Source: Lama glama (taxonomy: Eukaryota). From it: a stretch of 64,000 bases of DNA. Positions 26,583-31,555 of this stretch are shown here, piece after piece (position 1 is the first letter of the stretch; every line of letters begins with the position of its first letter). Under the pieces are notes generated by a model, which did no database searches, was not told the DNA's origin, and saw only the letters and a program-made list of their open reading frames with translations. Position numbers and translations under genes: made by a program. The stretch covers positions 7,690,001 to 7,754,000 of the forward strand of contig CM052816.1 in assembly GCA_028534125.1 (NCBI GenBank), written 5' to 3'.

Positions 26583-29353
26583 GTTTTGTGTGTGTGGTTT
26601 TTTTTAAACATCACTGATACATATATGGTAGTCTGGACCTGCTCGTGGTATCAAAATCAGTGCCTCTTCATATGGCAATAACAATGCATTTAATATTAAC
26701 TCACAGGTTAAGTCTGCAAAGGACCTCATAACATTACTTTGGCTAAACTTAAAATTACACAGCAATTTTAGACAACACTCAGATAAACATAAATATGTGG
26801 AGTGTGAAGCACTTATTTTATGGAGCTTAAATTATGGTAAAAACTATCAAGTGAAAACTGAAAATAAAAGTAAAAGCACTTTACAGTAGAAAACTTTTGT
26901 TAAGGGTACCTTTTAAAGTCTTTATAGCACACTGTTAGTAACTTTTGTTTTTAACACTATTATGGAATACCCTACTTTGTGTTAAAAGATTTTTGAAATA
27001 AGAAAATAGTGAAGTTTTCCATGTGGTTGTCTAAAAATCTAATAACACATTTATATGTACAGCATCCTTAGTAGCTGCTAAAACGAATGTGAAGTTTACA
27101 GGATCTAACATCGTACACAGCGATAAACAGTAGAAAAAACATTCTCCCAATGAAGGCAAAAATAGGACTTAAAAGAATGTAATCTCAGTTGACTTTATAG
27201 CATTCCTATAAGAAATACATGCATATTGCACAAACAGTGAGAGCAAATGTTCTACTAAGGAATTCATTTCCAGCTGGGAGATAAAACAGCATTAGCCTAT
27301 AGATGGCAATGATCTCAGAAAAGCATATGTTCTTTTCTGTACATGATAGAGATGTGAAAACAGAGAAGTGTCTGCCACGTGAAGAGTTAGAAAAAACCCA
27401 AACCCAAACTTAGATATAAAGCAAAAAACTAAATGTTGGAAAACTGAAAACTGTGGCAGACCCAAAAATGTTGAATAACTGTCTTTCGTGAGAGCTGAAA
27501 GTTTCTGTTGACACAAAAGTATTTATGTACAACTAAGGCTTACTGGTTAAATATCTGAGGCATATCTGAGGCATATCTGTCCTTAAACATTTTATATGCT
27601 GGAGGTGTGTAGGTGTCTGAAGTGTATTTAAAACAATAAGAATAATAGGTAATTTAGGTTGCAACTGGTGTAAAAATTGACAATTTAAAGCTTTATTAAC
27701 CTTTTTAAATTTTTTGATAGCTTCAGGGGTTAATGTACGTAATGAGGCAGGTTTTTTATCTCCTTTTAACAATTGAAATAAATGATATAATTGGACTGTA
27801 GATACTTCTAAAAAAAGGTCTGATCCAGTTAATATGTCCTAGCAATTGTTGTAATTGAACTAATGTTATACAAGGCTTGATATCTCATTTTATATTGTGT
27901 GACCTAATAGTTTGTGCGTTAATAGTTATCCCAAGAAACTCTCAAGGTTGCATTTTTTGTACTTTATCTTGAGCAACAAAAAGGCCCTTAGTTTGTAAAA
28001 ATGTAACAGTTTTTTGAAATAATAAAAGGAGATTAGGTTTGTCTTTCATAGCCAGTAAAGTGTCATCCATATAATGAAAACAGCTTTGTGCAAAGGGAAT
28101 GAGAAAAAACAATTTCTTATGTCAATAACAATTAAGGGCCAAGAGTCAGGAATAAGTGAAGGATTGGGTAGCCCCTTCTGTAAGGGTCCCATAGGTTGCA
28201 TTATAGCATTTATAGCACGCAAATCTTGCAATAACCTCCATTTTTTAAATTTTTTTCTTGATTACAAAAACAGGTGTGTTTCAAGGACTAGTAGAAGGTT
28301 TTAAATGACCCAACTTTTGTTGTTTTGCAACCAGTTTTTGTAATGCTTGTAGTTTTTCTTTAGGAAGGGGCCATTGCTCCATCCAAATAGGTTGTTATTG
28401 GGTCCATGTTAGAGCAATGGGGTTAATATTTGGGATAGTAGCGGCAGTCCCTATTAAAAAGGATCAATCTTTAAGGTTAGGTTTTACTGAGCAAGAAGGT
28501 CCTTGCCCCACAGAGTGCAGGGTATTGGTAATATAAAAGAAGTTACAAAGGCCATTTTATTTTTAGGCCCTCGGACCTCTAGTGGGTGAGAACTTATTTT
28601 AGGTGCCATTAGTCTATAAACTCTTTGTACAGTAATATCAGATTTGTGTTTTTGCCAATCAGAAGGCCAATGAAAACTAGAAATAATAGTTTTGTCCACT
28701 CCTGTGTCCAATAACCCCGTAAATTGCTTTTCTTGTATCAAAACTGTTAATATAGGTCTGTTACCAGTTAATGAATGTGTCCAAAAAGCTTGCTGTCCTT
28801 TCCGAAGCCTTTATCTCCTCTATTATTTTTAGCAAATTTTTGAGCCGGTAAATAAGGTATTAAAATAGTTTGAGCAATTTGAGATTGCTTAGGAGTAATG
28901 TAATAAGAGGCATGAACAATAATTTTAATTTCTCCAGTATAATCATTATCAATAACACCAGGTAAAACTGTTAACCCTTTTAAGCCCACAGATGATCTCC
29001 CTATTAACACTCCAAAATACCCAGAAAATAAAGGTCCCCAGACTCCAGTAGAGATTAAATAGGTTTTATTACTGTTACTTATCAACTCATTATCAATAGT
29101 ATCTAAACTTGTGCTCCTGGGGGAAGCTGTGATGAGGTCAGAAATGGTGGGATGGGACATTGGCTGACAGCGATTTCCTATATTTGTTTTTGAGGGACAC
29201 CTGGGAGGGTGCCCCACTTTGAAATAGCCTTTAAATAAACCCTCTGTTGTACTGTCAGCTGCTGTCCCATGGTTAGTTCGCGGCACACCTGATAGGCTGA
29301 AAAATCCCTGATATAAATTTTTCCCCTTACTTACATGTAGTCGCCGTGCTGAT

Positions 29354-29372
29354 ATCACATCGGTGGTCACCA
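29354..29372 (-). promoter_or_regulatory. Primer-binding site, tRNA-Trp-like
   Basis: TGGTGACCACCGATGTGAT compared with the tRNA-Trp complement TGGTGACCCCGACGTGAT: one insertion and one C>T. Confidence 0.75.
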
Positions 29373-29374
29373 AA

Positions 29375-29789
29375 TGATGGTGTCACGGTATCATGTACAC
29401 ATAGACACCGTATGCAGAGAGAGCTGATGGCTACTCTGAAGCTTTATTAAGTTACACAATCTTATGTAGCAAAGAAGAACGACAAGGGAGATGGTTAACA
29501 GGCAGTGTCTGGCTCAAGGTCAGAAGACTTTTTATGTTTTGGTAAATCATGTTCATGTTGGCACCAGCGAGCCTTACAGCTTATCAAGGCAGAATGTATG
29601 AGAAACGGCTGCTTCACAACATTCTTCTTGGACTCAGGCGGCTGTGCCTGCCTCAGGTTGCCCCCCTCTGGGGATCTTACCCGTCCTTGGCTAACCAGCC
29701 TTCTCACCTCTGAGTCTGCAGCTTTTTATAACTTGTTTACCCTTCCGGCCCAAGGCTCGTTCCTTTGTTCCCACAGTTAGGGGCCTACA
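29375..29789 (-). mobile_element. 5' LTR (415 bp) of the beta-like provirus
   Basis: Minus strand runs TGTAGG...ACACCATCA, AATAAA near 29445, followed by TT and the PBS. Confidence 0.85.
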
Positions 29790-31164
29790 GAGGTGTAAAC
29801 ATGTTTTCTCAGCTATTTTTGAAAAATCATACAACCCACTTCTCAGCACCTGCCTTAACGTGAAACAATGGCCTTGATACAAGAAAAAAAATTAAACAAG
29901 TGAAAGAAAAATCCCAGATAAGTGGGCATTTGGCAGGATATCCCAAAAGTGGTCGTCTCCAGAAATTCTTCCCAGGTTTCCAGTGACTTTGAGTTATGGT
30001 ACACTGGGTTACAAATATGTGCAATTCCATTACTTGCTGCTTCTGAGTTAATTTGAAAAGATTGCAATGACTCTGATCAAGGCCCCATTTTCATCCTTTA
30101 GGCTCTGGTTTTCTGTGTTAGATCTGGTGACATGTTGAGCTCTTCTTTCGATTCAGATATTCTCCTTTTTAGAGCTTAGTTCCCTTTCCCCCATTTCCAT
30201 TAATAACCTCTCTGCAAATCTTTCTTGTCGCTGGGTGGTCTTTTCCATTGGAAATTTAAGACCTGTCCGTTCCATATTTGTATCATGTCGCTGTGCTTTC
30301 AGCTTTTCATTTTCAGTTACAATTTGTTCTTAATGCTTTTTAAAGTCAGTGGAGTCACCCCTTTCTAGCCTACTACTTTTAAATCTTTCTTTTTTCTAAG
30401 TAACGGTATGATCCAGAGCAACCCGACAAGGAATCATACCAATCACGAGCTGACATGAAACTTGTTTTACATCTAGAAATGGAATCCGAGTTTCTTTCTT
30501 ATTGGAATCCTCTTCTGTACCTTTTTCATTCTCGTCGCTGTCTTGTGTCGCAAGTGAAACTCCTGTGGATCTTGATCACTGTCCTTCTCTGATTGATTTA
30601 GGTTGTGATTTATTTTCTCCTTCTTTTCCCTCTACTCTCTTCTCTCTCTCTTTTTCTTTTGTTAATCTCTGGAAGAAGCAGAAATATACCTACAAGATTA
30701 TTTGGCCTGTTTAGTTGACTTGAACCATAGAGTGAACTGTTCATGGTAGAAAGTGAGTAGGGTGGAGTGGAGCTTGAGGTTGACTGTGGTCTATAAGGCT
30801 GAGAAGTCTCATCGTATATTATATCCTGGAGTACTTTTGCTTATATTCATCTTCTCTAGATGTTTCTGATTCCTTCTTTTCTTCTTGCTTCTCTTTATCT
30901 TGTTTCTCTTTTTCTCCATTTTCTTGTTCTCTGATTTGGGTATAATGATTCTTGCTATTGTTTTTTTCAGCTTCCTGAAGATCAGTCATTGTCACCCCCC
31001 TGAGTTGATCTTCTAGACTGTCCTGCTTGTGTAGATCTTGCTTTCCTTTGAGATTCAAACTCTTCATCTTGAACAGGAGTGAAGTATGACCTGTGTGTCT
31101 CCCTAAGCTCTGATGTGGAGCAAGCAGTGCCAGCAGCAGTTGTAGTCAGGGTTATTCGCTGGGG

Positions 31165-31555
31165 GAGTTTTGATTACTTATTCAGTCTCCTTACTGGCTT
31201 TAAATCTATTCAGATATTCTATTTCTTCATTATTTAGTCTTGCTAAGTTTTGAGTTTCCAGGAATTTGTTTATTTCATCTAGATTATTCCATTCGTTGGT
31301 GTGCAATTGTTCATCATAGTCTCTTACAGTCTTTTTTAATTCTGTAAAATCAGTTGTAATGCCCCCTCTTTCATTTCTGATTTTAGTTATTTGAATATTT
31401 TCTCTCTTTCTTAGTCAGTTTAGTTAAAGGTTTGCCAATTTTGTTGATCTTTTTGAAGAACTAATTCTCGGTTTCATTGATTTTCTCTGTTGGTTTTTAT
31501 TGTCTATTTTGTTTATGTCTGCTCTAATCTTTATTATTCTCTTTCTTCTGGTAGC
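31165..31555 (-). mobile_element. L1 ORF2 fragment
   Basis: 'tctattcagatattctatttcttc...aggtttgccaattttgttgatcttt' is antisense L1 ORF2. Confidence 0.8.

Follow-up and report, generated by a model that had tools for sequence, protein, structure and literature searches.

How can a retroviral copy that carries a single long terminal repeat (LTR) and stops in the middle of pol be flanked by a perfect target-site duplication (TSD)? The question is raised by an insertion in a 64,000-nucleotide stretch of the Lama glama genome (assembly GCA_028534125.1, contig CM052816.1, positions 7,690,001 to 7,754,000 of the forward strand), which is hereafter named the window and numbered from its first letter. 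The insertion is a 2,182-bp betaretrovirus-like endogenous retrovirus (ERV) copy on the minus strand, running from 29789 to 27608 between two copies of GAGGTG. A sequence-only reading of the window had proposed an aberrant integration, in which integrase joined an internal att-like CA of a truncated cDNA. Our comparisons, made in the 2.35-Gb genome where the window lies on contig C1, confirm the observation itself, i.e. the anatomy of the insertion, the true TSD, the pol origin of its right end and the exceptional likeness of that end to the viral tips. The interpretation that integrase used this end is, in our view, the best single reading of the locus, with about an even chance of being correct.

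A one-LTR element with a true target-site duplication

Read on the minus strand, the element consists of TGTAGG...(415-bp LTR)...CCATCA, the dinucleotide TT, a primer-binding site and an internal region that finishes with ...CTTCAGACACCTACA. This internal region holds a short gag remnant, a dUTPase, a protease and a broken reverse transcriptase (RT), and its end is the pol-derived ...CAGACACCTACA. The features of the insertion are listed below in window coordinates, with the evidence in brackets.

27602..27607, no strand: TSD copy adjoining the internal (pol) end, GAGGTG on the plus strand (direct reading; single GAGCTG in the paralogue on contig C6)
27608..27619, minus strand: pol-derived last 12 bases, CAGACACCTACA, the att-like end of the insertion (copy comparison, tip matching)
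27608..27838, minus strand: RT thumb and start of the connection region, the final open pol stretch (Pfam RVT_thumb PF06817, E 2.6e-8, residues 10-43 of 77)
27945..28261, minus strand: two RT fragments with ~170 bases missing between them, a gap also present in the provirus L031 (Pfam RVT_1, profile positions 2-87 and 147-192)
28487..28810, minus strand: retroviral aspartyl protease (Pfam RVP PF00077, E 2.5e-18)
28798..29088, minus strand: dUTPase domain upstream of the protease (Pfam dUTPase PF00692, E 7.8e-16, residues 99-195 of the open reading frame 28771-29382)
29181..29270, minus strand: gag start remnant MGQQ..., 30 codons to a stop, the remaining gag being absent (open reading frame reading)
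29354..29372, minus strand: primer-binding site, with the TT dinucleotide ahead of it at 29373-29374 (sequence comparison)
29375..29789, minus strand: the sole LTR, 415 bases, TGTAGG...CCATCA, with the U5 tip TCA and its T at 29377 (LTR comparison)
29790..29795, no strand: TSD copy adjoining the U3 end, GAGGTG (direct reading; C6 paralogue)

The order of Pfam matches on the minus strand is dUTPase, RVP, RVT_1 and RVT_thumb, and since the dUTPase lies ahead of the protease, followed by RT, the layout is of the betaretrovirus type (class II). Two further class II features are an LTR bounded by TG...CA and a primer-binding site located two bases past U5. The cognate tRNA is putatively Trp-like. 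With 30 gag codons left, a ~170-base gap in RT and one LTR, the copy is not an autonomous provirus. It is not a solo LTR either. A solo LTR keeps no internal sequence, and 1,767 bases of it are found here behind the single LTR. Scanning the window for further pieces of a related provirus revealed none elsewhere in the window.

The hexamer GAGGTG stands exactly at 27602-27607 and 29790-29795 with 2,182 bases in between, as the sequence-only reading had described, and the direct repeat reaches 7 bases when the terminal viral A is counted. With boundaries fixed by homology, the chance of such a 6-bp match between flanks is 1/4096. Both flanks match an intron-bearing paralogue on contig C6 (pieces 77-90% identical), which reads ...GATGCTG GAGCTG TAAACAAG... 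with the hexamer present once. An empty site with a single hexamer was precisely what the earlier proposal called for, and the position occupied by GAGGTG is not duplicated in the paralogue; the duplication is therefore a true TSD made at insertion. Apart from these 6 bp, the flanks are collinear with the paralogue, with no large duplication, deletion or rearrangement of host DNA. A short duplication of a single-copy target at both junctions is the mark of concerted integration. However, such integration also has authentic LTR tips at both ends, and the right end is here RT coding sequence.

The repeat played no part in placing the two boundaries, which follow from homology. In alignments, the beginning of the LTR coincides with the TG that opens family LTRs, and the claimed course of the element, from a normal U3 end (TGTAGG, 29789) to a stop at 27608, is supported by this LTR alignment and by homology between copies. 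Indeed, alignments with nine other copies break off precisely at the final A of CCTACA. This hexamer is present at the site in 8 of the 9 copies, the ninth (L017) being without the last A, and all nine run on with GGGGT... into pol; the site reads CAGACACC in six of them and CAAACACC in the other three. As the other copies continue through the site, CCTACA is pol-derived, in agreement with the initial view, and does not represent a fixed family end. Truncation at this point is unique to the window copy, since none of the nine ends there. Many copies ending at the same position would have spoken against the sequence-only reading; we found none that ends or starts there. Only 14 places in the genome match the final 403 bases of the element, its own locus included. 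When the 400 bases beyond the site in a relative were used as query, no copy starting there was retrieved, all matches also carrying the preceding pol. These comparisons were performed copy by copy, and they answered the question for which a family consensus had been suggested. Finally, the end lies 34 residues past the Pfam match to the RT thumb domain, which places it in the RT connection region, again as initially read.

The likeness of this internal end to the viral tips is the most singular feature of the locus. Its last 6 bases are a perfect inverted copy of the U3 tip (6/6), as had been noticed. The match of its last 10 bases to the U5 tip had been given as 8/10, which holds for the element's own tip. 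The usual family tip, ...GACACC[A/G]ACA in 30 of 30 other LTRs, gives 9/10. The variable base of this tip is A in 24 of these LTRs, G in 6 and T in none, and the insertion carries the pol base at that place (a T at position 4 from the end). In L031, the pol site outranks all other internal CA-ending sites (320 in total) in its match to the U5 tip; among the 353 of another provirus, L030, it is tied second behind a site inside the primer-binding site. Of the 122 sites in the element itself, this is the only one at which each of the last 10 bases agrees with one of the two tips (U5 or U3). By position alone, the chance that a truncation falls at the most tip-like internal site is about 1/300 to 1/4,000. 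The window copy is also peculiar at its authentic U5 tip, whose TCA is unique among 31 LTRs, the 30 others all ending in ACA.

How the pol-derived end may have been made

Retroviral integrase is assumed to use the two LTR tips only. We propose, with about equal readiness to believe and to doubt it, that integrase accepted here the pol-derived end as its right-hand substrate. A non-autonomous betaretrovirus-like ERV would have inserted in the germline with proteins supplied in trans, the authentic U3 tip serving as left end and a CA inside the RT connection region as right end. Integrase would have assembled on both and inserted them in one concerted reaction, which would have produced the 6-bp duplication. 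If so, the chromosome never received the second LTR or the 2.45 kb of internal sequence on the 3' side. The internal end may have become available as a truncated cDNA, through an internal nick by integrase, the distal arm then being lost as the gap was repaired, or after an early minus-strand jump that took place after three bases or fewer. If the RNA carried the TCA U5 tip from the outset, integrase would have found the normal right end a poor substrate, which would favour a substitute. Two other routes to the end were considered and discarded. Mispriming of the minus strand at a primer-binding-like site located after the pol CA (inspected by eye) would rely on GGTG as the only shared bases with the 3' base of the primer unpaired, and an early minus-strand jump after 10 U5 bases followed by long-repeat recombination predicts the U5 base at the mismatch, which is not seen.

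Joining by integrase accounts directly for an end in CA that resembles both tips, for the presence of the pol base where pol and U5 differ, and for the exactness of the TSD. The length of the duplication is within the range of the family, 6 bp being found in 5 of 26 solo LTRs and in L031. Besides, an insertion with one LTR cannot collapse to a solo LTR, which is what nearly all members of the family have become, so that such events should be enriched among surviving internal copies. This enrichment would favour integrase over a later deletion, and we infer that the former rather than the latter made the end.

The strongest competitor, possible but rather unlikely, is nevertheless such a deletion after a standard integration. 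A two-LTR provirus of ~5 kb would have lost ~2.86 kb between the pol site GACACCTACA and the 3' LTR tip GACACCAACA through microhomology-mediated end joining or by slippage during replication, without any change to the TSD. No new enzymology is required for this, and in the undeleted provirus the pol site and the family U5 tip would have formed direct repeats that are 9/10 identical. A suitable precursor is illustrated by L031, a 5,015-base two-LTR provirus that is collinear with the element over all 2,182 bases and that itself shows that homology-flanked deletions occur in the family. The pol T is also what slippage would leave if the nascent strand came from the pol side. The sequence-only reading had held that a later deletion needed a crossover within the final CA only. 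This does not hold for the usual family tip, which ends in ACA and matches at 9/10; with such a repeat, slippage or mismatch repair of a 10-base heteroduplex would retain the pol version in about half of the cases. However, this pair belongs to a set of 1,548 (L031) or 2,286 (L030) direct 10-mer pairs with at least 9/10 matches, counts that include ~400 LTR-to-LTR pairs. With so many equal pairs, a deletion that ends exactly at the last base of the provirus is a ~1-in-1,000 outcome. In addition, a deletion through the longest perfect block, GACACC, should have left the U5 base at the mismatched position, where the pol base is observed. If the lost LTR had the TCA tip, the match falls to 8/10 and the crossover is confined to CA. 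The unique change of the U5 tip is moreover left as an unrelated coincidence. Illegitimate deletions between short repeats occur in LTR elements, where they remove internal sequence and an LTR and leave short direct repeats at the breakpoints, but normally they do not end at the last element base with the TSD intact.

Less probable still is a template switch before integration. The plus-strand 3' end, ...GACACCTACA, would have left pol and paired anew with the minus strand, at the complement of the U5 tip that forms the 5' end of that strand, where a two-base extension would have given an essentially authentic right end for integrase; the looped-out minus strand would have been lost at replication or repair. 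The 9/10 homology serves here too, and the expected base at the mismatch is that of pol, as observed. In HIV-1 proviruses, large deletions commonly result from aberrant strand transfers (PMC12657518). For the present locus, this scenario is inference only, and it demands that a 12-base terminal duplex beside a 2.9-kb single-stranded loop serves integrase. If the tip was TCA, pairing at the primer end would be limited to two bases. A switch of the minus strand would be expected to leave the U5 base at the mismatch or else repeats of LTR-to-pol segments, and the locus shows neither.

A one-ended integration, in which integrase joins the U3 end and host repair joins a truncated right end, appears very improbable. 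Such events are documented for avian sarcoma and leukosis virus (ASLV) and HIV-1 vectors, where they become frequent when one viral tip is a poor substrate; one end is then joined normally by integrase and the other is often truncated (PMC5041404). The TCA U5 tip could be a trigger of this kind. A germline precedent is the HERV-K(HML-2) provirus at 21q21.1, a betaretrovirus-like ERV without its 3' part and with a 450-bp duplication, ascribed to inefficient integration of this sort (PMC4422153). In contrast to the vector events, where joining by host enzymes goes with host duplications of hundreds to thousands of bases, deletions and inversions (PMC5041404), the duplication is here exactly 6 bases and the viral end is a CA at the most att-like site available. 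Moreover, only one base (A) is common to the viral end and the target at the junction. The HERV-K(HML-2) case also differs by its 450 bp against 6 bp, and no att-like internal end is reported in the available text of PMC4422153.

A variant in which integrase acted like a cut-and-paste transposase is equally far-fetched. It would have taken TGTAGG...CCTACA as terminal inverted repeats, nicked the internal site in viral double-stranded DNA, or even in that of a chromosomal provirus, and moved only the segment so bounded. A close relative nearby is what local hopping from such a donor in the chromosome would predict, and the solo LTR L002 (see below) does lie 1.35 Mb away on the same contig and strand, but this proximity is explained more simply by cis gene conversion or by chance.

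Readings without any special event have almost no credit. A fixed family structure is contradicted by the 9 of 9 other copies that run through the site. A copy of an ERV transcript processed by L1 would start in R, finish with poly(A) and show a long TSD of variable length, while the element starts at the TG of U3, has no poly(A) tail and shows a 6-bp TSD. A chance repeat has a probability of 1/4096 and meets a documented empty site in the C6 paralogue. Together with one-ended joining, these readings deserve only slight weight, and a small share of the probability is assigned to no reading.

Several observations weigh against integrase as the author of the end. The 9/10 match is also homology to the tip of the lost 3' LTR, and either a deletion or a plus-strand switch would give the same product. 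L031 has undergone a ~410-base deletion between imperfect repeats of ~25 bases. No second example was found among the few internal copies of the family, L036 and L038 having untidy ends without informative repeats. The TCA tip may have arisen before or after integration, and the argument built on it is conditional on an earlier tip. The experimental aberrant integrations show large host duplications or deletions and no normal TSD (PMC5041404). Finally, two metagenome scans with flank motifs, which might have supplied an orthologous allele from another lineage, matched nothing. The proposal of an aberrant integration through a cryptic att site is therefore retained in part: its anatomy is correct, the single hexamer of the paralogue, the pol origin of CCTACA and the uniqueness of the truncation favour it, and a deletion or a template switch also fits.

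Twenty public sequencing runs were listed for six organisms, and each run contains at least 0.66 of the sampled words of the stretch 26900-30500. As the flanks make up only 0.39 of this stretch, the ERV part is probably present in all 20 listed runs, as judged by the word share. A protein search with the last open stretch of the element returned no match.

The use by integrase of tip-like sequence away from the authentic tips has been envisaged before. In vitro, HIV-1 integrase cleaves an internal palindromic LTR-LTR junction (PMC1905944). Like the event proposed here, this reaction takes place on an internal tip-like sequence. The circle junction is made of authentic tips, whereas the llama site is coding sequence that merely resembles them. 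For HIV-1 proviruses, use of an alternative CA near an erroneous terminus after aberrant strand transfer has been proposed, and its authors call it undemonstrated (PMC12657518). This proposal and the reading favoured here have in common that integrase would use a CA near a non-canonical terminus. However, the HIV-1 proposal concerns the U3 end and near-terminus sites and comes without matched integration sites, while both junctions and the empty site are in hand here. Our literature searches found no described ERV that combines one LTR, an internal CA end and a normal TSD.

If the integrase reading is true, the locus is a variant of known aberrant integration. The in-vivo choice of a look-alike internal CA is proposed for HIV-1 but undocumented with both junctions, and a germline fossil for which both junctions, an empty site and a family context are at hand would preserve such an event as it happened in nature. 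It would then bear on the way defective or one-LTR proviruses are interpreted in reservoir and vector-safety studies, and on the annotation of truncated ERVs. Under the deletion reading, the insertion is no more than a decay product of the ordinary kind, though an unusually tidy one. The finding makes the question testable: a genome-wide count of elements that combine one LTR with an intact TSD is feasible, and how closely their internal ends resemble the tips can be scored.

The family of the element

A first look at the genome yielded 703 candidates for the LTR, of which 40 were scored, all at least 91% identical. Against these roughly 700 LTR candidates, about ten copies of the family hold internal sequence, and the subfamily of the window copy is represented by four or five such copies only. 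The closest two-LTR relative is L031, whose 5,015 bases are flanked by the 6-bp TSD AGGTAC. The element is collinear with its 5' part over its entire length at 90.6% identity, and relative to it is without 2,449 bases of internal sequence and the second 415-base LTR. Downstream of the site, L031 displays weak Pfam matches to the integrase zinc finger and core. Five other copies (L030 and L032 to L035) are collinear with element positions 433-1708. The ~170 bases of RT that are absent from the window copy and L031 are present in L030, L032, L033, L034 and L035. The deletion of ~410 bases carried by L031, which may have arisen before or after integration, is located at provirus positions ~2290-2330, corresponding to 2470-2950 in L030, between direct repeats (CAAG.ATCCTCAAAA.TA...).

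Beyond its short start, gag is absent from every examined copy with internal sequence (the window copy, L030-L035 and L037). The absence of gag together with the RT deletion makes the lineage non-autonomous, so that it must have been moved by proteins supplied in trans, and the family as a whole seems to be gag-less and trans-mobilised. Two LTR types share one internal region, the LTRs of L032-L035 being 70-90% like that of the window copy over short stretches only.

The TSDs of the family are of mixed length. For 26 solo LTRs (L002-L008, L041-L060), an exact 5-bp duplication is found in 15, an exact 6-bp one in 5 and none that is exact in 6, while the proviruses L031 and L030 have 6 bp and 5 bp, respectively. 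A 6-bp TSD characterises the class of mouse mammary tumour virus (MMTV) (PMC3790719). The window copy agrees with this figure, whereas its family is mixed and mostly 5-bp, and the sequence-only reading went too far in taking 6 bp as a rule. These lengths may reflect two helper integrases or one flexible integrase. The window copy, its closest LTR relative L002 and the provirus L031 are all 6-bp cases.

L002 (C1:6368892-6369306, minus strand) is a solo LTR with its own 6-bp TSD, ATCAAA. It is 98.3% identical to the LTR of the window copy, all others scored being at most 94% identical. It is found on the same contig and strand, 1,350,067 bases from the window LTR, and the chance of such proximity is ~0.001. 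The two LTRs differ at seven positions, of which five fall in the terminal 12 bases of either end (binomial p ~1e-5) and only two in the ~390-base body. This kinship may reflect cis gene conversion that left the tips untouched, a relation of donor and copy, or a young sublineage with two members. The likeness of L002 to the window LTR implies that LTR identity cannot date the insertion.

The host flank

The flanks match the intron-bearing C6 locus without its introns, which indicates that the window holds an intronless retrocopy of that gene. The retrocopy is old and spans ~27100-31200 of the window (paralogue at C6:39446899-39456622), and the ERV lies within its 3' untranslated part in the same orientation. 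The gene is presumably PPP1R12A, a name that comes from the sequence-only reading and from a motif in the open reading frames and that was confirmed by no search; Pfam and PDB sequence searches returned no name.

A deletion through ACACCT, a hexamer shared by the pol end and the target, was rejected, as it would give another junction. The occurrence of this hexamer in both the viral end (GACACCTACA) and the target (TTTACACCTCC) is probably due to chance, which we estimate ourselves at ~2-3%.

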